Source: Glaucostegus cemiculus (taxonomy: Eukaryota). From it: DNA of 64,000 nt. Shown here piece after piece: positions 2,808 through 64,000 of the stretch (position 1 is its first letter; each line of letters opens with the position of its first letter). The notes beneath the pieces were generated by a model. The model had not been told where the DNA came from and did not search any database. It worked only from the letters and a program-made list of their open reading frames with translations. The stretch spans positions 868,001 through 932,000 of the forward strand of contig CDPCPM010000375.1 of assembly GCA_976551045.1 (NCBI GenBank), in the 5' to 3' direction. The translations under genes and the position numbers were made by a program.

Positions 2808-2972
2808 CTTTGAATAATATGAGTTAGGCAAACTGATCTCCAGGTTGCGACTGCCATCATATTTCACTGACAGACCAAAATCTGTCTCAACTATTGTGTA
2901 GATACCATTTGTTATAACGTTTATCCCTTTCACATGACGTGGGATTGGTGTGCGGGTCCTTACTCCGTCCAG
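2808..2972 (-). CDS. Exon: middle part of the last visible VWD domain (LDGVRTRTP...[11 protein letters not shown]...YYSK)
   Basis: tag acceptor, gtaagt donor, 165 nt, phase 0-0, VWD TxFGLxVxxDG motif. Confidence 0.85.
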
Positions 2973-3255
2973 CTAGAAAAGAACATACTTTGTATGATAT
3001 AGACATCGTCAACTATGAAGAAACAGAACTATTTTACAACACTGAAAATAGATAAGATAAGATACTTATTAGTCACATGCACATCGAAACACACAGTGAA
3101 ATGCATCTTTTCGTATTACTGAGAATGTACTGGGGGCAGCCCTCAAGTGTCACCACTCTTACGGCACCAACATAGCATGCACACAGCTCCTAACAGGAGC
3201 ACCCGGAGGAAACCCACGCAGACACGGGGAAGAAAGAAAAAGAGAGGGAGAGAGA

Positions 3256-3296
<41 letters not shown>

Positions 3297-18200: not shown

Positions 18201-21200
18201 TTCCATATCGCTTAAATATTATCGACGTAGCTTACCCGAGAGTCTCCAGAGAGGTCAAGGTCTACTTCTCCTTCCATCCATTGGTTTCCCTTATTTCCTG
18301 ACTCAGACCACTTCAGGACTGATGCCCCGCTTTCAACCTGGTAAACATTCAAAGCCATGCTTCGAGCTACTCCATACATATGGTACCAGAATCGCATGCA
18401 ATGAGCTCCTCTCTTCGCACATGGAGCACTGACCAAATGGGCTCGGTCTCCTGGTCGCCCGTCATTGCCTTCAATGTAGATGTAGGAACCACCTGCGCAT
18501 ACCAGAAGGTTTATTAGTCAGACAGAAATCAGCTGCACAGTGGCTAGACGTCAATCTCACATCACTGACCTGCAGTGGTGTGGTCAAAAGGCGGTCCTGT
18601 GTTATATGAAGGTGTCGGCCCACTGATGCGTTTCCAGTCCAACGTATCGGTCTTGGATTGCGTCCACTGGCACAGGTCACCATCAAAGTTACAATCCCAT
18701 GAACAACCTGTGGGTTTCATAAAGGCACATCATTTGTCTGAATGCACTCAACAACAGCTAGAAATCATTCCATATCTGCAATACCATACTATTCAATAAA
18801 GGCATTGAAAAGTGCGGCTCAGGAGTGTACTTTATGGGAGTTATTTGATCATTCTACACAACGACTCATCAGGACTAATTCTACAAATGAGGATGGGCTA
18901 TTAACCAACACGTGCAGGGAAAGGAAGACACATGACATTCTCTCTCATGGCGAGGCTGGCTGCTACGACAGACAGCTGAAAGTATGCAATGAGATGACAG
19001 TGCCAGTCTTCAGAGACATTCCTTCTGCTGCTATAGACAGCTTGAAGTACTTCCTTCTTCTTGCACCAAATTCTGGAAGGACAAAAAACTCCACATTTTT
19101 AAAGCTACACTGACACTGAATTTTCCTTGAGGAGAAACAGTTGCCTGAGTAACTCTCATCCTCTCCCACCCCAACTGTTCTTCCCGACTGAGGCAATTCG
19201 GTACCCCCTTTACCACTCTCTTTCATTACAGCCTGATGCGGTCACAGAAATGTCAATCAAAGATGGCAAACCTAGCTTGTAACAGCAATTGAAACACTAA
19301 GACATCTTGAAATCCAACTTTCATAAATGGACGATAAAATGCATTGAACGAAAAGGCATTTGCACAACGCTCTGCAAAGAAATTCAGCTACAGCTGATTA
19401 AGACCGACAAGCTTATGTTTTCAAGTGAAAATGTGCTTTATCTATTAACTGGATTTCTCCACGTAACACATGCAGGAATAAAACACAGGAACAGAAGAAG
19501 ATTTCAGACTTACTTTTATCAATGCAGCCACTCTGCTGCCTCCAATCTCCCAGAACAACATCAGCTGCTTCACAAGCTGAAGCATAAGACTCCAGCGTGT
19601 TGCACATCTGAACTGAATCTCCGCCAGTCACGCAATGATCATAGACGCAGCTCTCAAAGTAGAGCTGAGGTGGGATATGCCAGTGGCACTCGTTAAATGG
19701 ACCAGGGTTGGCCAAAATTATTTTGCAGTATCTCTCTGCCTCTTGGCTTGCTGCTGGATCGCACAGCGGTGGAACTGGAGCAGTTTGATTACACCTGTGC
19801 AACAGAAACAATCTCTCACTTTTCTCAAATCAAAACTGTCTATCATCCCATTCAATCCCCTTCAAAGCGGGGATGGCTTGGCAGAAAAACCTAGCATGTC
19901 ATCAAAATAGGCAGCAGTCAACATGATTCCATTACGCAACTGAAAAGACTGAAATGCATCCTGAAAACAACACTAGGAAAACCATTTCACTTCCTTCCTG
20001 TGTGCTGCTGTCATTCGAGAGAACAAGACACAAGGGTGGATTTGAATAGCTCCTTGAAATCTCTTCCTTGCCCCAACATTCCTTAACTTCAACCAACCTC
20101 CTCACTTTGCGTGACTTCTCACTCTCATGTCTGGAGAAACCTTAGCATCTGCCTTCACGGAAATAAGAGACAGAAATACTCACAGCCAATCGTCATCAGT
20201 AACCATCCAACTGTTTCCAAACTGATTTGAATCCAAAGCTAGAATTCCATCAGGTTTCAAGAAGTCATCCAACTGGTCATTGGTGTAGGTCCCGCATAAG
20301 CCACACAGCTGTCCTTTGTATCTCTCATCCACAGTCACAACCAGTTGATGGTCTCCGTCAAACTTCACCTGAAGACCAAAGTTGGTCTGCAGCACCACAT
20401 ACGATCCTACCAGTGACAGTCTTACCGAAGAACTGGCTCGCACTGGGAGCTCAACCCTCACTCCGTCAACCTGAGCAAAGCATTAGCGAGTTAGCCACTG
20501 TAAAATCACAAACAACCCAGCTATCGCTCTACGTCATTTCAAGGCTGAAAATTAGACTCATCAGAGTATATCTTACTCACATAAACGTGCTTGTTTTTCC
20601 GCACTGCAATGTGAAGCTTCTCCAGATGCACGCTAACCGAATTAAGGACAGTCCATCTTGGACTACCTCTGTGCTCGTTTCGACTCGTCACAGAAAATCG
20701 AACAGATGTGTTTCCACAAGTCTCAGTCACCGTATAATTGCAAGCACCCTGGAAGTGGTACAGCTTCCCATCAAACGTCGTATAGTGCGGGTCACCGTAG
20801 ACGTGGCAAATGGCAGTGTCCGCGCTGTAACATCCCAAATTGCCGCCCTGCACTTTGCAAATTTCCCCCGCTCCACAAGATCCTGCTTCGCACTCTATTC
20901 GGTCATTCCCAGTGCAGCGGCACCTCTCTCGACAGCCGTCTTCCCAGAACATTGCACCTTTCTGACACACGGACAGCAAGCATTAGTTTCAAAATTGCTG
21001 CATGCTCTGAAAGGAAGCAGAACCCTGCTCCCATACAAACCAAAGCCCACCTCAAACACTCCCAACTGACCTCGTAGTATTTGTCCTTGTGCATGCAGCC
21101 ACAGTTCTCCACAGGCACACACGAGCTTCCACTCAGGACAAAGCCAACGTTACACTCACAGTCCTCCACACAAGGTTTACTGCAGTTAGCTGAAGCTAAA

Positions 21201-24200
21201 CGGTCCGTGCAAGTGGCTGGACAAGCGCTGGCACATGCGTTGTAATGGCTGTTGGCTGGACACCTGACAGCTGAAAGCATACAAGCAGCAAAAACTTTGA
21301 CACTTCAACCAAAGAAACTTCACAGAAGGCAATTCTCTGACACAATGTCGTTCCATCCTCACATTGGCAAGTATTACACCAACTGCATTTGCACCTAACT
21401 CATACGTACCACAGAAACTGGAGTTCCTCCACGGCACGATGGTCACTCCTGCGCTTTGGCAGGCGTCTGCATAGATTTGCAGGGCATTACACAAAGCTCC
21501 TTGGTCTCCATCCAACAAGCACAGTTCAACGACACAACTTTCAAAGCTCCCGTGGGCGTTGATTACAGAGTGGCAGTTTACAAATGGCCCCTGCTGACTG
21601 GTGATCAGACCACAGAAATCATTACTTTGGTAGCGCTCCTCCTCAGCCGGCTCACACACTTCTGGCTCGACCGGGTCACAACCTGGCTCGTCAGGTGGCA
21701 CCTTCCAGCTATTTCCCAGCTCGTTGGAATCTTTAGCTTGCTCTCCGTCAGGTTTCATGTAATCGTCCTTTCTCATCCCATTGTAGTTACCGCACATACC
21801 GCAAGTCTGATTAAAGTACGTGCTCGGCACCTTCACTTCCACTGAATGATCAGTGTCGTAAGAAACCGACAGGCCAAAGTCAGTGGACAGGACCACGTAT
21901 CTTCCGCTCCTACTCACACTCACGCCACCCTCAGCGAGCCGAACAGGTAAGGTCGCCCACACTTCATCCACCTGAGCACGAGAGCAAACACTGTATCAGG
22001 CAGCAATCTTCCTGCCACACCACGGCAACCATTCGCTCCCCGCACCATTCACGCTCCAGCAGCAATCCAAGCAACCGGCATTTCACCACTGTGCACGCCT
22101 AATTAGACGAGGCGTCACATGTATGGACATTCAGATCCGTTCAGACCACTCGCTTCAGCTTGCCATGAAAACTGGCAATGCCACTTCAGCTCAACTCACT
22201 TCCAATGCACTGCATCATAAATTCTTAGTCACTCACATCTTCAACTGCAAACAAAAGGCTTTACCGAAGCAATGATTCCAAATAAGATGATTGGCAGAAA
22301 GGGCTGTACTTTAGCAGACTTAGACTTACAGTACAAGACTTACCAACACGCGGTGACGTTCCATCTTCACCAGCCAAACCCTGTGGCCGTGAACAGCAAC
22401 CTGAACTCTCTGAACGTAAGAGACTTTAGCGTTGCCACGATTTTCATTCTTCGCTTCAATGTTGAAGGGTGCAAGGGAGGACGAATTTCCACACAGCTTG
22501 GCTATGGTGTAGGTACAGCTACCCATAAAATGGAGCGTCGCTTTGTCAAACGTGTTGTAATGCGGATCGTTGTGCACTCTGCAGATACCATATGTATATG
22601 GGTAGCAACCAGGAACGCCGTTCACAACTCCACAGTGGGAATCTGGAGCACACGCTGAATCCCGGCACACCACTTTACTGCCTGCCGAAGGACAGCTACA
22701 TTTTCTTGAGCAGGTATCATCTGTCCAGAATTCAGAGCCCACTGGGTAGTGCTTTCCTTCTGACCAGCAACCGCACTCATGTCTTGGCACACATCGGTCG
22801 TTGTACAAGACGTAACCACTGTCACATACACAGCCTTCCACGCATGGCTGCAAGCAGCTGGACGGAGCACCTGGACTCACGCAAGTAGCTGGGCAAGCTG
22901 AGCCACACTGCTCATAATGACTATTCGCTCCACATTGTAGGGCTGTGAACGGAATCCACAAGGTTACACGTTACTTTCATCCGCAATTCCTTCCGCAGAC
23001 ACGCAACTCAAAACTCATCGCTCAATCTCTTCTGGTTGCTCTCTATCTCCACTAAGTGTTTCATTGAATGATCTAGCAGTGTACTCTCAAGCACTTACGG
23101 CAAAAGCTCTCATTCCTCCAGGCTTCCACTCTCGCTCCCTCGGACTGGCATGCATCTCCATAGGACTCCAAACTACTGCACAGAGACTCCGGCTCCACGC
23201 CTAACGCACAAAGGTCGTACACGCAGTCACCAAAATAGACTTCCGGATCGACCTTGGAATGGCACTCTTTGAAAGGACCCTGTGCATCCGTTATTATTCC
23301 ACAGTAATATTTACTTTCTATCATGTGCCTTTCATCCTTCGTGCAATTTGGTCTGATGCCCACGTCAGGAGTACACCTGCAAAAGCAGCAGCATGCCAAA
23401 TGAGAAATACTTCAAGCTATATCAAATCTCTGCAAGCAAATGATGGAAATTACAAATAGCACACTTTTCAAAGGAACGGAAATATTACCAACAGCTTGGT
23501 TACAAGTGTACCTTGTGTCATTGTTAGACTGCCAACTGTTGCCCAAGCTGACCGAATCAGGCTCCATTATTCCATCCGGGTTCAGGAAATCATCTCCTCT
23601 GTCTCCATTATAGTTTCCACACATGCCACACACCTTGCCTTTGAAGAGACTAGGGAGAGTCACCTCAGCTCGATGCCTGCCATTGAACTTCACTCCCAAT
23701 CCAAAACTGGTGGTAATGACGACATACTGCCCAGTCAGAGCCACCGCAACGTCTGAGCTGACTGACACAGGGAGCACTGCCACTTCCCCATCAACCTGCA
23801 AACATACGGATCACTCGTCAATTCACTCTTCTGCCATCACACACTTCAATACACCTCATCAAGACACTTACCGCATCAAAGTCTTACCTTTACCACACGC
23901 CCCTTTCCTAGCGTGATTCTGTGATTGTAAACATCAACGTTGACTTGTCTGACGTAAGACACGTAGGGATTTCCTGACCTGTGCTCATTTGCAGCTTCAA
24001 CATTGAAAGAGGGCAGACCGCTGCTGCTGCTGCACAGCTTTGATAAGGTATATGTGCATGTTCCCATAAAGTCGTGAGCTTGCTTATCAAAGGTCATGTA
24101 GTGCGGATCTCCTTGCACTGTGCAGGACGATTCTAAATGCAGTAAAACAAAGATCAATTGGTCGAATGTCAGTAAAACACATACAGGCCACTTACAACAC

Positions 24201-27200
24201 TACCAGGAATTATTTGGTTTTCTTTACAAATGGGCCTCAGGGGAGAATTAATTCAAGTCTACCTAATCATTGTTGCATTAGGATCTCAATCCGCAGCTGG
24301 CATCTTCCTCACTACAGACAGATTTTAAGGAACTGGCAGAAGGAATAGACGGGAACTACAAGAAGATATTTCACCCACAGGGTGGACCTCGGTGCTTTGC
24401 AACGCAACAACTTAAAAGAAATGGTCCATGCCAACACAATCCCACAACAACCTTCATATGTGACCACATATTCAGGTGAACTGGCTTAAGCCAGAAGGTT
24501 GCAGACTGAAAACTGGAACAAGCAAAATACAGCCAACTGCTTCTTTGGCATGTCCACGATGGCCTGAGAGGCCTCCTTCTAGCACCTGAATTTCTACCAT
24601 TCTGCAAGTCTCCAATCTAAAACAGCACCACGAAGATCCCACATCACAGGTACATTCTATTCCTTTACTTGTATTGTCAGGCATCACGGTACTGGCTGTA
24701 GTTGAGATGCTTATTGTGGGTGGTGTTCCACAAACCTCTGCAGAAATAAGATAGTCCAGACTCAGGACAATTTAACTTTTATACCATAAACACATCGCGT
24801 CACACTTGCAGCCTACCGAAGCATGCAAAACCAAAAGAGAACCACAGTTTTACAGGAGAAATACCAACCTCCTGAACTAAAACCAATGCCGGCGTGGGCA
24901 TTGTCTACATTTAAGAAATACAGTCAAAGGAGCCACCACATATTTCACACCAACCTCCACAACATCCTACGTGCAAGGAAATGTCATCCACAGCAACATC
25001 ACTCCGGTAGTCATTGCCCCGGACTGCTTCAAGGAGGATCTGTCAGAGAAAGCATTACAATATCAGCAGGCAACAGCCTCAAATAGCATCATTTTAGCAT
25101 CACCCTTTCAATTCACAGTGGCAAAGCAGAGGCACACACCAGCTCTCAACTCTTCACCAAACAAATCCAGAGAATACACACCTCAGTACCGTTTAAAATC
25201 TAACCACATTACTCAAGTTATTCTCGCACAGAGACACGGAAAAAGGTAGGTCGCTACACTCTGCTTTATTGTTTATTTTCTATGAATTCCATGATTTAAA
25301 AGGAACTCTCAACTAATATCCACGTAGCTTACCCGAGAGTCTCCAGAGAGGTCAAGGTCTACTTCTCCTTCCATCCATTGGTTTCCCTTATTTCCTGACT
25401 CAGACCACTTCAGGACTGATGCCCCGCTTTCAACCTGGTAAACATTCAAAGCCATGCTTCGAGCTACTCCATACATATGGTACCAGAATCGCATGCAATG
25501 AGCTCCTCTCTTCGCACATGGAGCACTGACCAAATGGGCTCGGTCTCCTGGTCGCCCGTCATTGCCTTCAATGTAGATGTAGGAACCACCTGCGCATACC
25601 AGAAGGTTTATTAGTCAGACAGAAATCAGCTGCACAGTGGCTAGACGTCAATCTCACATCACTGACCTGCAGTGGTGTGGTCAAAAGGCGGTCCTGTGTT
25701 ATATGAAGGTGTCGGCCCACTGATGCGTTTCCAGTCCAACGTATCGGTCTTGGATTGCGTCCACTGGCACAGGTCACCATCAAAGTTACAATCCCATGAA
25801 CAACCTGTGGGTTTCATAAAGGCACATCATTTGTCTGAATGCACTCAACAACAGCTAGAAATCATTCCATATCTGCAATACCATACTATTCAATAAAGGC
25901 ATTGAAAAGTGCGGCTCAGGAGTGTACTTTATGGGAGTTATTTGATCATTCTACACAACGACTCATCAGGACTAATTCTACAAATGAGGATGGGCTATTA
26001 ATCAACACGTGCAGGGAAAGGAAGACACGTGACATTCTCTCTCATGGCGAGGCTGGCTGCTACGACAGACAGCTGAAAGTATGCAATGAGATGACAGTGC
26101 CAGTCTTCAGAGACATTCCTTCTGCTGCTATAGACAGCTTGAAGTACTTCCTTCTTCTTGCACCAAATTCTGGAAGGACAAAAAACTCCACATTTTTAAA
26201 GCTACACTGACACTGAATTTTCCTTGAGGAGAAACAGTTGCCTGAGTAACTCTCATCCTCTCCCATCCCAACTGTTCTTCCCGACTGAGGCAATTCGGTA
26301 CCCCCTTTACCACTCTCTTTCATTACAGCCTGATGCGGTCACAGAAATGTCAATCAAAGATGGCAAACCTAGCTTGTAACAGCAATTGAAACACTAAGAC
26401 ATCTTGAAATCCAACTTTCATAAATGGACGATAAAATGCATTGAACGAAAAGGCATTTGCACAACGCTCTGCAAAGAAATTCAGCTACAGCTGATTAAGA
26501 CCGACAAGCTTATGTTTTCAAGTGAAAATGTGCTTTATCTATTAACTGGATTTCTCCACGTAACACATGCAGGAATAAAACACAGGAACAGAAGAAGATT
26601 TCAGACTTACTTTTATCAATGCAGCCACTCTGCTGCCTCCAATCTCCCAGAACAACATCAGCTGCTTCACAAGCTGAAGCATAAGACTCCAGCGTGTTGC
26701 ACATCTGAACTGAATCTCCGCCAGTCACGCAATGATCATAGACGCAGCTCTCAAAGTAGAGCTGAGGTGGGATATGCCAGTGGCACTCGTTAAATGGACC
26801 AGGGTTGGCCAAAATTATTTTGCAGTATCTCTCTGCCTCTTGGCTTGCTGCTGGATCGCACGGCGGTGGAACTGGAGCAGTTTGATTACACCTGTGCAAC
26901 AGAAACAATCTCTCACTTTTCTCAAATCAAAACTGTCTATCATCCCATTCAATCCCCTTCAAAGCGGGGATGGCTTGGCAGAAAAACCTAGCATGTCATC
27001 AAAATAGGCAGCAGTCAACATGATTCCATTACGCAACTGAAAAGACTGAAATGCATCCTGAAAACAACACTAGGAAAACCATTTCACTTCCTTCCTGTGT
27101 GCTGCTGTCATTCGAGAGAACAAGACACAAGGGTGGATTTGAATAGCTCCTTGAAATCTCTTCCTTGCCCCAACATTCCTTAACTTCAACCAACCTCCTC

Positions 27201-54200: not shown

Positions 54201-57200
54201 TGCACTCAACAACAGCTAGAAATCATTCCATATCTGCAATACCATACTATTCAATAAAGGCATTGAAAAGTGCGGCTCAGGAGTGTACTTTATGGGAGTT
54301 ATTTGATCATTCTACACAACGACTCATCAGGACTAATTCTACAAATGAGGATAGGCTATTAACCAACACGTGCAGGGAAAGGAAGACACATGACATTCCC
54401 TCTCATGAGGAGGCTGGCTGCTACGACAGACAGCTGAAAGTATGCAATGAGATGACAGTGCCAGTCTTCAGAGACATTCCTTCTGCTGCTATAGACAGCT
54501 TGAAGTACTTCCTTCTTCTTGCACCAAATTCTGGAAGGACAAAAAACTCCAAATTTTCAAAGCTACACTGACACTGAATTTTCCTTGAGGAGAAACAGTT
54601 GCCTGAGTAACTCTCATCCTCTCCCACCCCAACTGTTCTTCCCGACTGAGGCAATTCGGTACCCCCTTTACCACTTTCTTTCATTACAGCCTGACGCGGT
54701 CACAGAAATATCAATCAAAGATGGCAAACCTAGCTTGTAACAGCAATTGAAACACTAAGACATCTTGAAATCCAACTTTCATAAATGGACGATAAAATGC
54801 ATTGAACGTAAAGGCATTTGCACAACGCTCTGCAAAGAAATTCAGCTACAGCTGATTAACACCGACAAGCTTGTGTTTTCAAGTGAAAATGTGCTTTATC
54901 TATTAACTTTATCTATTAACACATGCAGGAATAAAACACAGGAACAGAAGAAGATTTCAGACTTACTTGTATCAATGCAGCCACTCTGCTGCCTCCAATC
55001 TCCCAGAACAACATCAGCTGCTTCACAAGCTGAAGCATAAGACTCCAGCGTGTTGCACATCTGAACTGAATCTCCGCCAGTCACGCAATGATCATAGACG
55101 CAGCTCTCAAAGTAGAGCTGAGGTGGGATATGCCAGTGGCACTCGTTAAATGGACCAGGGTTGGCCAAAATTATTTTGCAGTATCTCTCTGCCTCTTGGC
55201 TTGCTGCTGGATCGCACGGCGGTGGAACTGGAGCAGTTTGATTACACCTGTGCAACAGAAACAATCTCTCACTTTTCTCAAATAAAAACTGTCTATCATC
55301 CCATTCAATCCCCTTCAAAGCGGGGATGGCTTGGCAGAAAAACCTAGCATGTCATCAAAATAGGCAGCAGTCAACATGATTCCATTACGCAACTGAAAAG
55401 ACTGAAATGCATCCTGAAAACAACACTAGGAAAACCATTTCACTTCCTTCCTGTGTGCTGCTGTCATTCGAGAGAACAAGACACAAGGGTGGATTTGAAT
55501 AGCTCCTTGAAATCTCTTCCTTGCCCCAACATTCCTTAACTTCAACCAACCTCCTCACTTTGCGTGACTTCTCACTCTCATGTCTGGAGAAACCTTAGCA
55601 TCTGCCTTCACGGAAATAAGAGACAGAAATACTCACAGCCAATCGTCATCAGTAACCATCCAACTGTTTCCAAACTGATTTGAATCCAAAGCTAGAATTC
55701 CATCAGGTTTCAAGAAGTCATCCAACTGGTCATTGGTGTAGGTCCCGCATAAGCCACACAGCTGTCCTTTGTATCTCTCATCCACAGTCACAACCAGTTG
55801 ATGGTCTCCGTCAAACTTCACCTGAAGACCAAAGTTGGTCTGCAGCACCACATACGATCCTACCAGTGACAGGCTTACCGAAGAACTGGCTCGCACTGGG
55901 AGCTCAACCCTCACTCCGTCAACCTGAGCAAAGCATTAGCGAGTTAGCTACTGTAAAATCACAAACAACCCAGCTATCGCTCTACGTCATTTCAAGGCTG
56001 AAAATTAGACTCATCAGAGTATATCTTACTCACATAAACGTGTTTGTTTTTCCGCACTGCAATGTGAAGCTTCTCCAGATGCACGCTAACCGAATTAAGG
56101 ACAGTCCATCTTGGACTACCTCTGTGCTCGTTTCGACTCGTCACAGAAAATCGAACAGATGTGTTTCCACAAGTCTCAGTCACCGTATAATTGCAAGCAC
56201 CCTGGAAGTGGTACAGCTTCCCATCAAACGTCGTATAGTGCGGGTCACCGTAGACGTGGCAAATGGCAGTGTCCGCGCTGTAACATCCCAAATTGCCGCC
56301 CTGCACTTTGCAAATTTCCCCCGCTCCACAAGATCCTGCTTCGCACTCTATTCGGTCATTCCCAGTGCAGCGGCACCTCTCTCGACAGCCGTCTTCCCAG
56401 AACATTGCACCTTTCTGACACACGGACAGCAAGCATTAGTTTCAAAATTGCTGCATGCTCTGAAAGGAAGCAGAACCCTGCTCCCATACAAACCAAAGCC
56501 CACCTCAAACACTCCCAACTGACCTCGTAGTATTTGTCCTTGTGCATGCAGCCACAGTTCTCCACAGGCACACACGAGCTTCCACTCAGGACAAAGCCAA
56601 CGTTACACTCACAGTCCTCCACACAAGGTTTACTGCAGTTAGCTGAAGCTAAACGGTCCGTGCAAGTGGCTGGACAAGCGCTGGCACATGCGTTGTAATG
56701 GCTGTTGGCTGGACACCTGACAGCTGAAAGCACACAAGCAGCAAAAACTTTGACACTTCAACCAAAGAAACTTCACAGAAGGCAATTCTCTGACACAATG
56801 TCGTTCCATCCTCACATTGGCAAGTATTACACCAACTGCATTTGCACCTAACTCATACGTACCACAGAAACTGGAGTTCCTCCACGGCACGATGGTCACT
56901 CCTGCGCTTTGGCAGGCGTCTGCATAGATTTGCAGGGCATTACACAAAGCTCCTTGGTCTCCATCCAACAAGCACAGTTCAACGACACAACTTTCAAAGC
57001 TCCCGTGGGCGTTGATTACAGAGTGGCAGTTTACAAATGGCCCCTGCTGACTGGTGATCAGACCACAGAAATCATTACTTTGGTAGCGCTCCTCCTCAGC
57101 CGGCTCACACACTTCTGGCTCGACCGGGTCACAACCTGGCTCGTCAGGTGGCACCTTCCAGCTATTTCCCAGCTCGTTGGAATCTTTAGCTTGCTCTCCG

Positions 57201-60200
57201 TCAGGTTTCATGTAATCGTCCTTTCTCATCCCATTGTAGTTACCGCACATACCGCAAGTCTGATTAAAGTACGTGCTCGGCACCTTCACTTCCACTGAAT
57301 GATCAGTGTCGTAAGAAACCGACAGGCCAAAGTCAGTGGACAGGACCACGTATCTTCCGCTCCTACTCACACTCACGCCACGCTCAGCGAGCCGAACAGG
57401 TAAGGTCGCCCACACTTCATCCACCTGAGCACGAGAGCAAACACTGTATCAGGCAGCAATCTTCCTGCCACACCACGGCAACCATTCGCTCCCCGCACCA
57501 TTCACGCTCCAGCAGCAATCCAAGCAACCGGCATTTCACCACTGTGCACGCCTAATTAGACGAGGCGTCACATGTATGGACATTCAGATCCGTTCAGACC
57601 ACTCGCTTCAGCTTGCCATGAAAACTGGCAATGCCACTTCAGCTCAACTCACTTCCAATGCACTGCATCATAAATTCTTAGTCACTCACATCTTCAACTG
57701 CAAACAAAAGGCTTTACCGAAGCAATGATTCCAAATAAGATGACTGGCAGAAAGGGCTGTACTTTAGCAGACTTAGACTTACAGTACAAGACTTACCAAC
57801 ACGCGGTGACGTTCCATCTTCACCAGCCAAACCCTGTGGCCGTGAACAGCAACCTGAACTCTCTGAACGTAAGAGACTTTAGCGTTGCCACGATTTTCAT
57901 TCTTCGCTTCAATGTTGAAGGGTGCAAGGGAGGACGAATTTCCACACAGCTTGGCTATGGTGTAGGTACAGCTACCCATAAAATGGAGCGTCGCTTTGTC
58001 AAACGTGTTGTAATGCGGATCGTTGTGCACTCTGCAGATACCATATGTATATGGGTAGCAACCAGGAACGCCGTTCACAACTCCACAGTGGGAATCTGGA
58101 GCACACGCTGAATCCCGGCACACCACTTTACTGCCTGCCGAAGGACAGCTACATTTTCTTGAGCAGGTATCATCTGTCCAGAATTCAGAGCCCACTGGGT
58201 AGTGCTTTCCTTCTGACCAGCAACCGCACTCATGTCTTGGCACACATCGGTCGTTGTACAAGACGTAACCACTGTCACATACACAGCCTTCCACGCATGG
58301 CTGCAAGCAGCTGGACGGAGCACCTGGACTCACGCAAGTAGCTGGGCAAGCTGAGCCACACTGCTCATAATGACTATTCGCTCCACATTGTAGGGCTGTG
58401 AACGGAATCCACAAGGTTACACGTTACTTTCATCCGCAATTCCTTCCGCAGACACGCAACTCAAAACTCATCGCTCAATCTCTTCTGGTTGCTCTCTATC
58501 TCCACTAAGTGTTTCATTGAATGATCTAGCAGTGTACTCTCAAGCACTTACGGCAAAAGCTCTCATTCCTCCAGGCTTCCACTCTCGCTCCCTCGGACTG
58601 GCATGCATCTCCATAGGACTCCAAACTACTGCACAGAGACTCCGGCTCCACGCCTAACGCACAAAGGTCGTACACGCAGTCACCAAAATAGACTTCCGGA
58701 TCGACCTTGGAATGGCACTCTTTGAAAGGACCCTGTGCATCCGTTATTATTCCACAGTAATATTTACTTTCTATCATGTGCCTTTCATCCTTCGTGCAAT
58801 TTGGTCTGATGCCCACGTCAGGAGTACACCTGCAAAAGCAGCAGCATGCCAAATGACAAATACTTCAAGCTATATCAAATCTCTGCAAGCAAATGATACA
58901 AATAGCACACTTTTCAAAGGAACGGAAATATTACCAACAGCTTGGTTACAAGTGTACCTTGTGTCATTGTTAGACTGCCAACTGTTGCCCAAGCTGACCG
59001 AATCAGGCTCCATTATTCCATCCGGGTTCAGGAAATCATCTCCTCTGTCTCCATTATAGTTTCCACACATGCCACACACCTTGCCTTTGAAGAGACTAGG
59101 GAGAGTCACCTCAGCTCGATGCCTGCCATTGAACTTCACTCCCAATCCAAAACTGGTGGTAATGACGACATACTGCCCAGTCAGAGCCACCGCAACGTCT
59201 GAGCTGACTGACACAGGGAGCACTGCCACTTCCCCATCAACCTGCAAACATACGGATCACTCGTCAATTCACTCTTCTGCCATCACACACTTCAATACAC
59301 CTCATCAAGACACTTACCGCATCAAAGTCTTACCTTTACCACACGCCCCTTTCCTAGCGTGATTCTGTGATTGTAAACATCAACGTTGACTTGTCTGACG
59401 TAAGACACGTAGGGATTTCCTGACCTGTGCTCATTTGCAGCTTCAACATTGAAAGAGGGCAGACCGCTGCTGCTGCTGCACAGCTTTGATAAGGTATATG
59501 TGCATGTTCCCATAAAGTCGTGAGCTTGCTTATCAAAGGTCATGTAGTGCGGATCTCCTTGCACTGTGCAGGACGATTCTAAATGCAGTAAAACAAAGAT
59601 CAATTGGTCGAATGTCAGTAAAACACATACAGGCCACTTACAACACTACCAGGAATTATTTGGTTTTCTTTACAAATGGGCCTCAGGGGAGAATTAATTC
59701 AAGTCTACCTAATCATTGTTGCATTAGGATCTCAATCCGCAGCTGGCATCTTCCTCACTACAGACAGATTTTAAGGAACTGGCAGAAGGAATAGACGGGA
59801 ACTACAAGAAGATATTTCACCCACAGGGTGGACCTCGGTGCTTTGCAACGCAACAACTTAAAAGAAATGGTCCATGCCAACACAATCCCACAACAACCTT
59901 CATATGTGACCACATATTCAGGTGAACTGGCTTAAGCCAGAAGGTTGCAGACTGAAAACTGGAACAAGCAAAATACAGCCAACTGCTTCTTTGGCATGTC
60001 CACGATGGCCTGAGAGGCCTCCTTCTAGCACCTGAATTTCTACCATTCTGCAAGTCTCCAATCTAAAACAGCACCACGAAGATCCCACATCACAGGTACA
60101 TTCTATTCCTTTACTTGTATTGTCAGGCATCACGGTACTGGCTGTAGTTGAGATGCTTATTGTGGGTGGTGTTCCACAAACCTCTGCAGAAATAAGATAG

Positions 60201-63200
60201 TCCAGACTCAGGACAATTTAACTTTTATACCATAAACACATCGCGTCACACTTGCAGCCTACCGAAGCATGCAAAACCAAAAGAGAACCACAGTTTTACA
60301 GGAGAAATACCAACCTCCTGAACTAAAACCAATGCCGGCGTGGGCATTGTCTACATTTAAGAAATACAGTCAAAGGAGCCACCACATATTTCACACCAAC
60401 CTCCACAACATCCTACGTGCAAGGAAATGTCATCCACAGCAACATCACTCCGGTAGTCATTGCCCCGGACTGCTTCAAGGAGGATCTGTCAGAGAAAGCA
60501 TTACAATATCAGAAGGCAACAGCCTCAAATAGCATCATTTTAGCATCACCCTTTCAATTCACAGTGGCAAAGCAGAGGCACACACCAGCCCTCAACTCTT
60601 CACCAAACAAATCCAGAGAATACACACCTCAGTACCGTTTAAAATCTAACCACATTACTCAAGTTATTCTCGCACAGAGACACGGAAAAAGGTAGGTCGC
60701 TACACTCTGCTTTATTGTTTATTTTCTAGGAATTCCATGATTTAAAAGGAACTCTCAACTAATATCCACGTAGCTTACCCGAGAGTCTCCAGAGAGGTCA
60801 AGGTCTACTTCTCCTTCCATCCATTGGTTTCCCTTATTTCCTGACTCAGACCACTTCAGGACTGATGCCCCGCTTTCAACCTGGTAAACATTCAAAGCCA
60901 TGCTTCGAGCTACTCCATACATATGGTACCAGAATCGCATGCAATGAGCTCCTCTCTTCGCACATGGAGCACTGACCAAATGGGCTCGGTCTCCTGGTCG
61001 CCCGTCATTGCCTTCAATGTAGATGTAGGAACCACCTGCGCATACCAGAAGGTTTATTAGTCAGACAGAAATCAGCTGCACAGTGGCTAGACGTCAATCT
61101 CACATCACTGACCTGCAGTGGTGTGGTCAAAAGGCGGTCCTGTGTTATATGAAGGTGTCGGCCCACTGATGCGTTTCCAGTCCAACGTATCGGTCTTGGA
61201 TTGCGTCCACTGGCACAGGTCACCATCAAAGTTACAATCCCATGAACAACCTGTGGGTTTCATAAAGGCACATCATTTGTCTGAATGCACTCAACAACAG
61301 CTAGAAATCATTCCATATCTGCAATACCATACTATTCAATAAAGGCATTGAAAAGTGCGGCTCAGGAGTGTACTTTATGGGAGTTATTTGATCATTCTAC
61401 ACAACGACTCATCAGGACTAATTCTACAAATGAGGATGGGCTATTAACCAACACGTGCAGGGAAAGGAAGACACATGACATTCTCTCTCATGGCGAGGCT
61501 GGCTGCTACGACAGACAGCTGAAAGTATGCAATGAGATGACAGTGCCAGTCTTCAGAGACATTCCTTCTGCTGCTATAGACAGCTTGAAGTACTTCCTTC
61601 TTCTTGCACCAAATTCTGGAAGGACAAAAAACTCCACATTTTTAAAGCTACACTGACACTGAATTTTCCTTGAGGAGAAACAGTTGCCTGAGTAACTCTC
61701 ATCCTCTCCCACCCCAACTGTTCTTCCCGACTGAGGCAATTCGGTACCCCCTTTACCACTCTCTTTCATTACAGCCTGATGCGGTCACAGAAATGTCAAT
61801 CAAAGATGGCAAACCTAGCTTGTAACAGCAATTGAAACACTAAGACATCTTGAAATCCAACTTTCATAAATGGACGATAAAATGCATTGAACGAAAAGGC
61901 ATTTGCACAACGCTCTGCAAAGAAATTCAGCTACAGCTGATTAAGACCGACAAGCTTATGTTTTCAAGTGAAAATGTGCTTTATCTATTAACTGGATTTC
62001 TCCACGTAACACATGCAGGAATAAAACACAGGAACAGAAGAAGATTTCAGACTTACTTTTATCAATGCAGCCACTCTGCTGCCTCCAATCTCCCAGAACA
62101 ACATCAGCTGCTTCACAAGCTGAAGCATAAGACTCCAGCGTGTTGCACATCTGAACTGAATCTCCGCCAGTCACGCAATGATCATAGACGCAGCTCTCAA
62201 AGTAGAGCTGAGGTGGGATATGCCAGTGGCACTCGTTAAATGGACCAGGGTTGGCCAAAATTATTTTGCAGTATCTCTCTGCCTCTTGGCTTGCTGCTGG
62301 ATCGCACGGCGGTGGAACTGGAGTAGTTTGATTACACCTGTGCAACAGAAACAATCTCTCACTTTTCTCAAATCAAAACTGTCTATCATCCCATTCGATC
62401 CCCTTCAAAGCGGGGATGGCTTGGCAGAAAAACCTAGCATGTCATCAAAATAGGCAGCAGTCAACATGATTCCATTACGCAACTGAAAAGACTGAAATGC
62501 ATCCTGAAAACAACACTAGGAAAACCATTTCACTTCCTTCCTGTGTGCTGCTGTCATTCGAGAGAACAATACACAAGGGTGGATTTGAATAGCTCCTTGA
62601 AATCTCTTCCTTGCCCCAACATTCCTTAACTTCAACCAACCTCCTCACTTTGCGTGACTTCTCACTCTCATGTCTGGAGAAACCTTAGCATCTGCCTTCA
62701 CGGAAATAAGAGACAGAAATACTCACAGCCAATCGTCATCAGTAACCATCCAACTGTTTCCAAACTGATTTGAATCCAAAGCTAGAATTCCATCAGGTTT
62801 CAAGAAGTCATCCAACTGGTCATTGGTGTAGGTCCCGCATAAGCCACACAGCTGTCCTTTGTATCTCTCATCCACAGTCACAACCAGTTGATGGTCTCCG
62901 TCAAACTTCACCTGAAGACCAAAGTTGGTCTGCAGCACCACATACGATCCTACCAGTGACAGTCTTACCGAAGAACTGGCTCGCACTGGGAGCTCAACCC
63001 TCACTCCGTCAACCTGAGCAAAGCATTAGCGAGTTAGCCACTGTAAAATCACAAACAACCCAGCTATCGCTCTACGTCATTTCAAGGCTGAAAATTAGAC
63101 TCATCAGAGTATATCTTACTCACATAAACGTGCTTGTTTTTCCGCACTGCAATGTGAAGCTTCTCCAGATGCACGCTAACCGAATTAAGGACAGTCCATC

Positions 63201-64000
63201 TTGGACTACCTCTGTGCTCGTTTCGACTCGTCACAGAAAATCGAACAGATGTGTTTCCACAAGTCTCAGTCACCGTATAATTGCAAGCACCCTGGAAGTG
63301 GTACAGCTTCCCATCAAACGTCGTATAGTGCGGGTCACCGTAGACGTGGCAAATGGCAGTGTCCGCGCTGTAACATCCCAAATTGCCGCCCTGCACTTTG
63401 CAAATTTCCCCCGCTCCACAAGATCCTGCTTCGCACTCTATTCGGTCATTCCCAGTGCAGCGGCACCTCTCTCGACAGCCGTCTTCCCAGAACATTGCAC
63501 CTTTCTGACACACGGACAGCAAGCATTAGTTTCAAAATTGCTGCATGCTCTGAAAGGAAGCAGAACCCTGCTCCCATACAAACCAAAGCCCACCTCAAAC
63601 ACTCCCAACTGACCTCGTAGTATTTGTCCTTGTGCATGCAGCCACAGTTCTCCACAGGCACACACGAGCTTCCACTCAGGACAAAGCCAACGTTACACTC
63701 ACAGTCCTCCACACAAGGTTTACTGCAGTTAGCTGAAGCTAAACGGTCCGTGCAAGTGGCTGGACAAGCGCTGGCACATGCGTTGTAATGGCTGTTGGCT
63801 GGACACCTGACAGCTGAAAGCACACAAGCAGCAAAAACTTTGACACTTCAACCAAAGAAACTTCACAGAAGGCAATTCTCTGACACAATGTCGTACCATC
63901 CTCACATTGGCAAGTATTACACCAACTGCATTTGCACCTAACTCATACGTACCACAGAAACTGGAGTTCCTCCACGGCACGATGGTCACTCCTGCGCTTT
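2808..64000 (-). CDS. Giant multi-exon MAM/VWD-C8-TIL repeat protein (zonadhesin-like / IgGFc-binding protein-like / alpha-tectorin-like); partial, extends beyond both window ends
   Basis: Minus-strand exons with GT-AG borders and compatible phases. They encode VWD (GDPHYxTFD...CGxCGNYNG), C8 (GPFxxCH...CVYDxC...YAxAC), TIL (CPxNSHYxxCxSACPATC) and MAM ([10 protein letters not shown]...DHTT...[10 protein letters not shown]...VAVDDI) motifs. Exact orthology cannot be assigned from sequence alone. Confidence 0.9.
3049..3388 (-). mobile_element. tRNA-derived SINE copy containing a GA/GAGTGA microsatellite
   Basis: Same head, core and (ttatc)n tail as 1095-1388, with a purine microsatellite at about 3230-3322. 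Confidence 0.8.
3230..3322. repeat. (GA)n/(GAGTGA)n microsatellite
   Basis: Directly visible. Confidence 0.95.
4100..4575 (+). mobile_element. 5'-truncated CR1 LINE 3' fragment
   Basis: [13 protein letters not shown]...GDMIEVY...TRGHSFK...FFTQRVV translation and tgttcta tail. Confidence 0.88.
4689..4930 (-). CDS. Exon: VWD N-terminal part ([17 protein letters not shown]...)
   Basis: tag acceptor, gtaagg donor, 242 nt, phase 1-0. The GDPH motif is replaced by SGTH. Confidence 0.88.
5340..5583 (-). mobile_element. Older tRNA-derived V-SINE-like element
   Basis: Minus strand reads gcacagtggtacagctg...ggttcagtcctgacctc...gggtttcctccaggtgctccggcttcctccca. Confidence 0.7.
5630..6028 (-). mobile_element. 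CR1 LINE 3' fragment
   Basis: Reverse complement of a CR1 3' end (gggtgacctgatagaggtgtacaag...), with a (tagaaca)-type tail at the left end. Confidence 0.8.
6441..6585 (-). CDS. Exon: TILa/VWC-like module ([17 protein letters not shown]...GCQMA)
   Basis: cag acceptor, gttagt donor, 145 nt, phase 0-1, typical Cys pattern. Confidence 0.88.
7685..7884 (-). CDS. Exon: TIL domain ([20 protein letters not shown]...NNKYYQ)
   Basis: tag acceptor, gtaaat donor, 200 nt, phase 1-0. Confidence 0.9.
8524..8700 (-). CDS. Exon: C8 domain ([10 protein letters not shown]...CVYDMC...WRNNTLC)
   Basis: tag acceptor, gtaagt donor, 177 nt, phase 1-1. Confidence 0.9.
9292..9725 (+). mobile_element. CR1 LINE 3' fragment
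   Basis: [14 protein letters not shown]...TRGH...[11 protein letters not shown] translation and tgttcta tail. Confidence 0.88.
10074..10168 (-). CDS. Exon: VWD-C8 linker and start of C8 ([13 protein letters not shown]...CGMITDPT)
   Basis: cag acceptor, gtacac donor, 95 nt, phase 2-1. Confidence 0.85.
11062..11170 (-). CDS. Exon: VWD C-terminal part ([31 protein letters not shown])
   Basis: tag acceptor, gtaagt donor, 109 nt, phase 1-2. Too short to appear in the ORF track. Confidence 0.88.
11256..11514 (+). mobile_element. tRNA-derived SINE (V-SINE/HE1-like)
   Basis: ggcacggtagtgtag head (locally duplicated), ggttcaattc B box, core and (ttatc)n tail. Confidence 0.85.
11717..11965. repeat. 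Interspersed-repeat remnant with imperfect inverted arms (probable retroelement 3' ends)
   Basis: gtgaaaagcttttgtttgcgtgccattcaaacagatc is approximately the reverse complement of gatctgtctggatggcaggaaaacaaagtttttcac. The right arm resembles 14040-14120. Confidence 0.5.
12615..12792 (-). CDS. Exon: VWD middle part ([12 protein letters not shown]...[11 protein letters not shown]...LLCGIC)
   Basis: tag acceptor, gtaggt donor, 178 nt, phase 0-1. Confidence 0.9.
13920..14122 (+). mobile_element. Non-LTR retroelement 3'-end remnant with (caata)n-like tail
   Basis: ttttcactgtaccccagtacaagtgacaatagtaaatcaatacaaatacaatac, plus short internal tandem repeats (caatgcactctgta)x2. Confidence 0.5.
14292..14539 (-). 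CDS. Exon: VWD N-terminal part ([17 protein letters not shown]...HKVL)
   Basis: cag acceptor, gtatgt donor, 248 nt, phase 1-0. Confidence 0.92.
14622..15002. mobile_element. Two adjacent palindromic repeats (Penelope-like pLTR-type remnants) with decayed hammerhead cores
   Basis: Inverted arms ggcagcatctg / cagatgctgcc occur twice. CTGATGA-AGGGTC-CTG-GATCT-GAAA lies at 14894-14918. Confidence 0.6.
15530..15966 (-). mobile_element. CR1 LINE 3' fragment
   Basis: [13 protein letters not shown]...[14 protein letters not shown] on the minus strand; close relative of 4100-4575. Confidence 0.88.
16581..16836 (+). mobile_element. tRNA-derived SINE (V-SINE-like) with A-rich tail
   Basis: ggcacgatagcgcagcgg A box, ggttcgattcc B box and gggtttcctccggg core; CpG-rich, so probably young. 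Confidence 0.85.
16871..16939 (-). CDS. Exon (uncertain): Thr/Ser-rich linker after the last MAM ([23 protein letters not shown])
   Basis: Codon-for-codon paralogue of the 69-nt array linker exon, with an intact gtaaag donor. The acceptor position reads cactg rather than cag. Confidence 0.6.
17146..17230 (-). CDS. Exon: C-terminal part of the last MAM domain ([28 protein letters not shown])
   Basis: cag acceptor, gttggt donor, 85 nt, phase 0-1; paralogue of 24955-25039. Confidence 0.88.
17460..18170 (+). mobile_element. Old, highly decayed CR1-like remnant
   Basis: Residual CR1-like tracts (atggaatttcacccgaagaagtgcgag, gggatagaatatctgagcag, ggagaggatataaatcagatttatgaagatg). It is absent from the homologous intron in the array units. 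Confidence 0.55.
18236..18492 (-). CDS. Unit 1 exon: MAM middle (GGSYIYIEG...[10 protein letters not shown]...GDSR)
   Basis: cag / gtaagc, 257 nt, phase 1-0. Confidence 0.92.
18570..18707 (-). CDS. Unit 1 exon: MAM N-terminal part ([14 protein letters not shown]...[10 protein letters not shown])
   Basis: cag / gtcagt, 138 nt, phase 1-1. Confidence 0.92.
19514..19794 (-). CDS. Unit 1 exon: third C8 domain (CNQTAPVPP...[12 protein letters not shown]...WRQQSGCID)
   Basis: cag / gtaagt, 281 nt, phase 2-1. Confidence 0.92.
20184..20470 (-). CDS. Unit 1 exon: third VWD, C-terminal half (VDGVRVELP...CGLCG...GNSW)
   Basis: cag / gtgagt, 287 nt, phase 0-2. Confidence 0.92.
20581..20961 (-). CDS. 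Unit 1 exon: TILa/VWC-like module plus third VWD N-terminal half ([11 protein letters not shown])
   Basis: cag / gtgagt, 381 nt, phase 0-0. Confidence 0.92.
21071..21270 (-). CDS. Unit 1 exon: second TIL domain ([12 protein letters not shown]...DKYYE)
   Basis: cag / gtcagt, 200 nt, phase 1-0. Confidence 0.92.
21410..21971 (-). CDS. Unit 1 exon: second VWD C-terminal half plus C8
   Basis: cag / gtacgt, 562 nt, phase 0-1; CGMCGNYNG and GPFVNCH motifs. Confidence 0.92.
22344..22942 (-). CDS. Unit 1 exon: first TIL, TILa and second VWD N-terminal half ([10 protein letters not shown])
   Basis: cag / gtaagt, 599 nt, phase 1-0. Confidence 0.92.
23099..23376 (-). CDS. Unit 1 exon: first C8 domain
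   Basis: cag / gtaagt, 278 nt, phase 2-1. Confidence 0.92.
23512..23795 (-). CDS. Unit 1 exon: first VWD C-terminal half (VDGEVAVLP...CGMCGNYNG)
   Basis: cag / gtacac, 284 nt, phase 0-2. Confidence 0.92.
23888..24132 (-). CDS. Unit 1 exon: first VWD N-terminal half ([15 protein letters not shown])
   Basis: tag / gtaaga, 245 nt, phase 1-0. Confidence 0.92.
24669..24737 (-). CDS. Unit 1 exon: Thr/Ser/Pro linker ([23 protein letters not shown])
   Basis: cag / gtaaag, 69 nt, phase 1-1. Confidence 0.8.
24955..25039 (-). CDS. Unit 1 exon: MAM C-terminal part ([28 protein letters not shown])
   Basis: cag / gttggt, 85 nt, phase 0-1. Confidence 0.9.
25333..32136 (-). CDS. Unit 2: 13 exons (MAM + 3x VWD-C8 module), 1,222 aa
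   Basis: Unit 1 exons at offset +7097; same translations and splice sites. Confidence 0.9.
32430..39233 (-). CDS. Unit 3: 13 exons, 1,222 aa
   Basis: Unit 1 exons at offset +14194. Confidence 0.9.
39527..46317 (-). CDS. Unit 4: 13 exons, 1,220 aa (6-nt in-frame deletion in linker exon)
   Basis: Same exon set; deletion at about 45972. Confidence 0.9.
46611..53400 (-). CDS. Unit 5: 13 exons, 1,220 aa (6-nt in-frame deletion in linker exon)
   Basis: Same exon set; deletion at about 53055. Confidence 0.9.
53694..60485 (-). CDS. Unit 6: 13 exons, 1,222 aa
   Basis: Same exon set; private substitutions R>S (about 55873) and G>R (about 57381). Confidence 0.9.
60779..64000 (-). CDS. Unit 7 (partial): end of C8, TIL, VWD, C8 and two MAM exons
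   Basis: Same exons as unit 1 at 18236-21457; truncated by the window edge. Confidence 0.88.

Follow-up and report, generated by a model that had tools for sequence, protein, structure and literature searches.

The question raised by this locus is whether a tandem array of near-identical coding blocks in Glaucostegus cemiculus encodes one very large protein, to which family that protein belongs, and how its units come to be so alike. The analysed window is a 64,000-nucleotide stretch of contig CDPCPM010000375.1 (NCBI GenBank assembly GCA_976551045.1, positions 868,001 to 932,000 of the forward strand), and the positions given below are those of the window. An earlier note on this DNA had described a gene growing by whole-block duplication. 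The analysis favours, with a probability of roughly 0.7, the interpretation that the window holds the middle and 3' part of one gene, encoding a repeated-unit scaffold that is a paralogue of zonadhesin and whose units have been homogenised by recombination. No further gene was found within the window besides this VWD/MAM gene.

Comparison of the window with itself by BLAST gave six diagonals, at offsets of 7,086, 14,183, 21,280, 28,364, 35,447 and 42,532, with identities of 99.2-99.6%. All of the diagonals began at 18,173 and reached the right end of the window, corresponding to approximately 6.5 units. The period was ~7.09 kb, and the result agrees with the earlier note's count of at least 6.4 near-identical 7.1-kb units of 13 exons. 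The array edge, noted there at 18226, was located at 18,173, within the intron that follows the MAM-middle exon; the array did extend to the window end, as described, and the last MAM-end exon was found to lie outside it.

All 13 exons were present in every unit covered by the window, with AG/GT borders on the minus strand. The exon lengths and borders described previously were reproduced, except that the linker exon measured 63 nt rather than 69 nt in two of the six complete units (53,098-53,036 and 46,015-45,953). The shorter linker reflects an in-frame 6-nt deletion, which leaves 1,220 codons in those units rather than 1,222. The 85 exons from 63,813 to 17,146 joined into 7,870 codons with no stops (300 and 611 in the other two frames), in line with the previous finding of exons free of stops and frameshifts. 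The addition of nine downstream exons (14,539 to 2,808) gave a stop-free product of 8,390 amino acids, close to the ~8,400 estimated before, and the gene is open at both ends. The basking-shark gene model aligned with the joined open reading frame over 6,837 residues, at 78.7% identity and with five gap positions. As this independent model aligns nearly gap-free, every exon junction is supported, including the unit junction. The models of the sawshark, electric ray, catshark and basking shark (four of the four compared) joined the same exons across units. The open frame and the basking-shark alignment bear out the claim of a single open reading frame rather than a gene cluster. The claim that no break separates the units holds in that one frame runs through them, and was slightly too strong, as the junction intron contains an in-frame stop a few codons beyond the MAM-middle donor and two AATAAA hexamers (25,277 and 25,270 in that unit). 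These hexamers are a possible, candidate intronic polyadenylation site. The region of the stop and hexamers (25270-25333 and equivalents) is the same spot as the array edge.

Pfam domains were identified in 12 of the 13 exons. The unit comprises a VWD-C8-TIL-TILa assembly (module A), a second VWD-C8-TIL-TILa assembly (module B) and a VWD-C8 assembly (module C), followed by a MAM domain, and the remaining exon encodes a Ser/Thr-rich linker of 23 residues. Identity among modules A, B and C is only 43-48%; the triplet is therefore old, and it is the entire block that repeats. Each unit contains 86 cysteines and 10 N-glycosylation sequons. By the exon-list count, the window holds 20 complete VWD domains and seven MAMs. 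The GDPH motif was present in modules A and C and in the first tail assembly (T1), and NDPH in module B; the second tail assembly (T2) had neither motif. In total, 14 GDPH sites were identified in the window, and six further VWDs carried NDPH. Modules A, B and C and T1 all had a cysteine preceding the motif and a CGxCG. Among solved structures, those nearest to the 599-nt exon were FCGBP chains, followed by VWF and mucins (16 sequences matched). An RGD in module A was considered as an integrin site and rejected, being absent from the 20 commonest variants at that position among the module-A copies of the family.

The complete units differed from each other by 1-44 substitutions. With the eroded edge of unit 1 left out, 11 of 3,666 exon columns were variable, compared with 48 of 3,435 intron columns (Fisher P = 2.5e-7). 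The exon variants included four synonymous and seven non-synonymous changes; 11 sites were too few for the ratio of non-synonymous to synonymous rates (dN/dS) among units to be informative. Four indels were found among units, none of them in a homopolymer run, and the single exonic one was 6 nt long. Across the six full units, 36 informative variants formed long runs with 10 pattern changes (none of 10,000 shuffles gave as few), and the four-gamete test was failed by 234 of 630 site pairs. These tracts and four-gamete failures demonstrate recombination between units. Two unit subtypes were distinguished, and when the units were recut just past the 562-nt exon the array order read X' Y Y X X X. 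In this shifted register, the substitutions numbered 1-3 between X copies, 12 between Y copies, 12-14 between X' and X, and 39-49 between X and Y. The X/Y reading in the recut register indicates that exchanges took place off the array-edge register, as unequal crossing-over allows. The duplication breakpoints lie near the intron after the 562-nt exon, and not at the unit junction as drawn in the earlier note. It is very probable that units are gained, lost and homogenised through misaligned recombination between the 7-kb units, by unequal crossing-over whether or not accompanied by gene conversion. Every register would be workable, because exchange at homologous positions rebuilds whole units and domains in frame, and selection would purge damaged units and so keep the frame open.

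Relatives were collected through a single-exon protein search (130 matches, of which the best 120 were considered) and searches with longer homologues (233 matches, of which the best 120 were considered, and 84 matches with a MAM-region query). Among the matches listed, the database labels were 'IgGFc-binding protein-like' or 'zonadhesin-like', and the best were the electric ray Narcine and the manta Mobula, at 84-85%. These matches point to a batoid as the probable source, in agreement with the module-B tree described below. The whole unit was colinear with shark and ray models at 77-85% identity and with turtle, bird, lizard, frog and paddlefish models at 53-64%, including a quail model at 59.8% over 1,197 residues. 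Predicted proteins from sharks, rays, lungfish, amphibians, reptiles and birds carried the unit in repeated form, with identities of 55-85% across species and mostly 95-100% inside a single species. A platypus fragment was 56% identical to modules A and B of the basking-shark model. The only therian proteins among the matches listed were true FCGBPs, at no more than 43% per module, which weakly suggests that the gene may have been lost in therians.

A set of 51 family proteins from 47 species was hand-picked by module identity from two of the searches; zanl, FCGBP, teleost zlg-type proteins, unnamed matches and three duplicate duck isoforms were left out. The copy numbers are soft, since they come from automatically predicted models and from assemblies whose quality varies. 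At least two copies of module B were present in 42 of the 51 proteins. The closest pair was at least 95% identical in 38 of these 42, and all pairs were at least 90% identical in 37, compared with identities of 53-87% between family proteins and the window's own module B. A maximum-likelihood tree of module B (54 rows, from 18 family proteins, six window copies and one outgroup) gave species-only clades for 17 of 17 multi-copy taxa. The first unit was diverged in birds and sea turtles (module A, 62-69%), as would be expected of an edge copy. Across the family, 141 of 144 A modules, 139 of 149 B modules and 130 of 131 C modules retained the DPH motif. On these comparisons the unit is an ancient block under concerted evolution within each species, from sharks to birds. 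The models of the relatives carried 2 to 6 module-B copies (six in the basking shark, whose model is open at both ends), consistent with the earlier proposal that copy number changes by whole-block recombination. The picture of a recently growing gene was not upheld; since sharks, rays, lungfish and tetrapods have the block in common and its copies are homogenised species by species, turnover fits better than growth.

A quick tree of the C-terminal tail (39 rows, without mammalian ZAN) grouped the window with the family, from sharks to birds, with a Shimodaira-Hasegawa-like approximate likelihood ratio test (SH-aLRT) support of 100. The family stood apart from the zan/zanl of sharks, teleosts, coelacanth, caecilian and reptiles, and far from FCGBP and TECTA. 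ZAN was missing because the MAM-region search, crowded by invertebrate multi-MAM proteins, returned no mammalian sequence. The sawshark carries both genes (P0136 and P0178). FCGBP_N (Pfam PF17517) was listed for none of the 51 family proteins and was listed for true FCGBPs in the same search. The family models with a complete start open with a signal-like stretch and a MAM. The gene would therefore be a jawed-vertebrate zonadhesin/zanl paralogue, neither an FCGBP nor zonadhesin proper, that databases label 'IgGFc-binding protein-like'. The possibility that the tail belongs to a neighbouring zanl gene was ruled out, because the tail falls with the family in the tree and many models join it to the MAM. 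CREMP, an eggshell-membrane protein with similar database labels, is a different protein (bioRxiv 10.1101/2025.09.16.676614). A caecilian 'zonadhesin' (P0169) grouped with zan/zanl, whereas Roberts et al. 2022 (PMC9275260) report none in amphibians.

Hunt et al. 2005 (PMC1325057) outlined an 'FCGBP-like' gene on chicken chromosome 9 (XP_422715.1, predicted 4,770 amino acids, three MAMs), and its architecture appears to be the one found here; the link is made through architecture and through chicken and quail matches. In that account each chicken MAM is followed by O-glycosylation sites, the VWDs pair as 1/4, 2/5 and 3/6, and the gene is linked to salmon zlg. The window likewise shows a repeated MAM, a short, putatively O-glycosylated linker and a VWD triplet, and the chicken pairing matches modules A, B and C. 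It differs in having at least seven MAMs and 20 complete VWDs against three MAMs, and Hunt et al. mention neither near-identical units nor concerted evolution. The teleost (salmon and zebrafish) zlg is reduced (B, C and MAMs) and lacks an anchor (PMC1325057).

ZAN and the fish zan/zanl have MAM, a mucin-like linker and VWD assemblies in common with the family, and the zan/zanl C-terminal assemblies are homologous, at 48-56% over the window tail. They also end in EGF and an anchor, parts that would lie outside the window and are predicted for the tetrapod members of the family. Zan is defined by domain order and by synteny between Ephb4 and Epo, and the MAMs of ZAN are N-terminal only (Roberts et al. 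2022, PMC9275260), whereas the window has a MAM in every unit. FCGBP resembles the window in its serial VWD-C8-TIL-E assemblies with GDPH self-cleavage (in the window, cleavage is predicted) and its compact exons, and GDPH with flanking cysteines is found in most VWDs of the window. However, FCGBP has no MAM, has FCGBP_N and forms a separate clade, while the window family has a MAM per unit and no FCGBP_N. FCGBP is defined by FCGBP_N, and no other family of vertebrates is said to attain the 13 VWDs that it has in human (Lang et al. 2016, PMC4948705); the window exceeds this with at least 20.

Multi-exon block repeats, intragenic concerted evolution and the outline of the chicken gene are already known. 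Human FCGBP vWD3-5 is a three-assembly block repeated three times (PMC11796319), and zebrafish zan has three ~5-kb multi-exon blocks sharing an identity of 85-87% (PMC1325057). In domain-repeat proteins, as in the window, repeats can resemble each other more closely inside one species than across species and bear marks of recombination (PMC5100051). In that study concerted evolution was rare and lineage-specific and concerned domain repeats, whereas here all of the multi-copy taxa tested, from sharks to birds, showed it, and the repeat is a 1,222-residue, four-module, 13-exon unit. The analysis adds a resolved array showing unit turnover, family-wide homogenisation of the unit, and a separate paralogue that annotation calls FCGBP. 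Intragenic concerted evolution of repeats has reportedly also been described in studies of spider silk genes. No published account of the array, of family-wide homogenisation or of the gene as a distinct paralogue of zonadhesin was found in the literature covered, in which the papers of Hunt et al. 2005, Lang et al. 2016 and Roberts et al. 2022 were the sole relevant ones and which left out most subscription journals and the supplements of the last two.

The family plan would consist of a signal peptide and a divergent MAM, followed by n repeats of a block made up of VWD-A, VWD-B, VWD-C, MAM and a short Ser/Thr linker, after which come three unique VWD assemblies and an EGF, with an anchor and cytoplasmic tail added in tetrapods. 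A membrane segment was identified at the end of 22 of the 51 family models, all tetrapod, corresponding to 22 of 42 non-chondrichthyan and none of nine chondrichthyan models. The tetrapod orthologues are thus predicted to end in EGF, membrane anchor and cytoplasmic tail. The earlier proposal of an extracellular or mucus-matrix protein fits the VWD/MAM mucus type, but a membrane-anchored orthologue is not simply matrix. An N-x-A-F/Y motif was noted in the cytoplasmic tail of 20 of the 22 anchored models (e.g., P0141, P0292, P0295 and P0298), which we take to resemble NxxY-type sorting signals.

FCGBP cleaves at GDPH and its fragments remain disulfide-joined (PMC8267560). By analogy, the chain may be cut at its GDPH sites and yet be held by a conserved disulfide across each cut. 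Salmon zlg is expressed in gut and not in testis, and its VWDs group with those of the chicken gene (PMC1325057). On balance we lean towards a product that would be a self-cleaving, disulfide-held chain of ~1 MDa with at least 20 VWDs, acting as a protease-tolerant gut or mucosal scaffold, tethered or shed, with unit number setting its length and valency.

A broader statement can be offered only tentatively, with the odds somewhat against it as a whole: that this is an unrecognised jawed-vertebrate zonadhesin paralogue mislabelled FCGBP-like, the most VWD-rich vertebrate family, whose unit has been under concerted evolution for more than 400 million years; that unit number is a selected, polymorphic length setting of a tethered or shed mucosal barrier protein; and that teleosts have a reduced form of the gene, the platypus has retained it and therians have lost it. 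The chicken or Xenopus would provide a testable case for selection on the repeat number of a barrier protein. The finding also bears on the origin of zonadhesin, because a close paralogue is present in two groups, birds and amphibians, for which Roberts et al. 2022 report neither Zan nor ZanL (PMC9275260).

Several observations weigh against the interpretation of a repeated-unit zonadhesin paralogue homogenised by recombination. The tail tree came from a quick run that included no mammalian ZAN, and it does not show zanl/zan as monophyletic. Copies are more diverged (65-91%) in the lungfish and in three or four models from amphibians or geckos. The synonymous density (0.5%) is below the intron density (1.4%), so part of the exon deficit may reflect better homogenisation rather than selection. 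The sole expression data are from the much reduced salmon zlg. Units 2 and 3 are one substitution apart and the three X units 1-3 apart, so that assembly could have inflated the number of X units, and the divergence of X' from X and of Y1 from Y2 (12-14) is about allele-like and compatible with allelic pairs. A real array with a copy number inflated in this way, through over-expansion of X units or two haplotypes placed in tandem, is unlikely, given at least four distinct unit types, variants in coherent tracts, variation that avoids exons, indels that all lie outside homopolymer runs, and the six module-B copies of the basking-shark model. That the units are separate genes or decaying duplicates rather than parts of one transcript is highly improbable. 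Although the junction intron has a possible polyadenylation signal, the 85 exons are stop-free and orthologous models run through the units, and one gene per unit was ruled out because no part of the unit resembles a signal peptide or a membrane segment (best 19-residue hydropathy 1.39) and because the array-edge junction lies inside the MAM domain.

The absence of a membrane segment from all nine cartilaginous-fish models, and the two shark models that stop at an identical place ~25 residues past the EGF, likewise weigh on the side of doubt. They favour a cartilaginous-fish protein that is secreted rather than tethered, or a series of shorter secreted products arising from polyadenylation within the junction introns, where the in-frame stop and two AATAAA are followed by a T/GT-rich stretch. 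Two batoid models also end alike, just before the EGF, and salmon zlg has no membrane segment (PMC1325057). This alternative is nevertheless rather doubtful, since the anchor is kept in shark zanl paralogues and 22 tetrapod models, three AATAAA per 3.4 kb of intron is near chance (~1 expected by our own estimate), and the short forms would finish in a MAM without its last 28 residues. Automated models also often lose small last exons. A neutral origin of unit number, as a by-product of frame-safe tandem units in which length has no selected role, is about equally unlikely. Copy number varies widely among models, and relatives have expanded other registers (skate, softshell turtle, sea turtles and catfish); however, the multi-unit homogenised state is seen in 42 of 51 models and nearly every sampled lineage, and pure drift should often give single-copy or diverged arrays. 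Sharks and rays fertilise internally, and the family is the closest paralogue of zan/zanl with an identical domain set, as would suit a gamete-recognition or egg-coat protein like mammalian zonadhesin with repeats homogenised for that reason. Such a role is improbable, as zebrafish zan and salmon zlg show expression in the gut but none in the testis (PMC1325057), sperm function is argued to arise in eutherians (PMC9275260), and between rays and birds the unit retains 55-64% identity.

Coordinates of the features identified in the window
Feature	Position	Strand	Evidence
Tandem array, ~6.5 units of 7,083-7,097 bp	18173..64000	-	self-BLAST; right end open
Partial unit 7: module B end, module C, MAM start and middle exons (63,813 to 60,779)	60486..64000	-	exon search
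Unit 6, 13 exons	53401..60485	-	exon search and unit comparison
Unit 5, linker exon 63 nt	46318..53400	-	exon search and unit comparison
Unit 4, linker exon 63 nt; mosaic, first half resembling unit 5, second half units 1-3	39234..46317	-	
Unit 3, 1 substitution relative to unit 2	32137..39233	-	unit comparison
Unit 2	25040..32136	-	exon search and unit comparison
Unit 1, carries eroded array edge	18173..25039	-	exon reading, Pfam
Unit 1 MAM end	25039-24955	-	Pfam
Unit 1 Ser/Thr linker	24737-24669	-	exon reading
Unit 1 VWD-A (GDPH)	24132-23888 + 23795-23512	-	Pfam
Unit 1 C8	23376-23099	-	Pfam
Unit 1 TIL, TILa, VWD-B start (NDPH)	22942-22344	-	Pfam
Unit 1 VWD-B end, C8	21971-21410	-	Pfam
Unit 1 TIL	21270-21071	-	Pfam
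Unit 1 TILa, VWD-C start (GDPH)	20961-20581	-	Pfam
Unit 1 VWD-C end	20470-20184	-	Pfam
Unit 1 C8	19794-19514	-	Pfam
Unit 1 MAM start	18707-18570	-	Pfam
Unit 1 MAM middle	18492-18236	-	Pfam
Two adjacent Y-subtype copies, shifted register, approximate limits	42600..56800	-	boundaries within 56,733-56,871 and 42,571-42,709
Last MAM-end exon, outside homogenised array; 5/85 bases differ	17146..17230	-	
Degenerate linker-exon copy; acceptor AG lost; skipping keeps frame	16871..16939	-	
Nine unique exons: VWD assembly T1 (GDPH) and first part of T2; gene runs beyond base 1	2808..14539	-	
Tail exons 1-3	14539-14292, 12792-12615, 11170-11062	-	
Tail exons 4-6	10168-10074, 8700-8524, 7884-7685	-	
Tail exons 7-9	6585-6441, 4930-4689, 2972-2808	-	

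At the position of the degenerate linker copy (16871-16939), the Narcine model is also without a linker, and skate and shark models retain one of 25-43 residues. Expansions in other registers were noted in several relatives. MAM+T1 was expanded four times in a skate (P0160), MAM+T1 and T1 in a softshell turtle (P0298), T1 in sea turtles (P0304 and P0308), and MAM alone 10-15 times in catfish (P0248 and P0261). In the shark zanl paralogue (P0178 and P0180), internal VWD repeats were likewise homogenised (83-99% identical).

The array and the tail differ in composition. Introns measured 77-806 bp in the array versus 639-2,606 bp in the tail, and CpG observed/expected was 0.56 versus 0.24, with a third-position GC of 0.52 versus 0.41. 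The array composition would fit GC-biased conversion in a homogenised array. The intron positions of modules A, B and C (three each; 18236-25039) are a subset of the seven of T1 (6441-14539); either the array lost introns or the tail gained them. No internal interspersed repeats were found in the array, compared with 3,561 bases of the tail region, including a reverse-transcriptase fragment. Fragments of a long interspersed nuclear element, which we take to be CR1-like, and of a short repeat lie in introns between 1095 and 16747. Those of the long element include a reverse-transcriptase match at 1,427-1,915 and related 3' ends near 2,019-2,457, 4,105-4,576, 5,638-6,027, 9,308-9,728 and 15,531-15,970. 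The short-repeat fragments lie at 1,095-1,387, 11,280-11,465 and 16,588-16,747.

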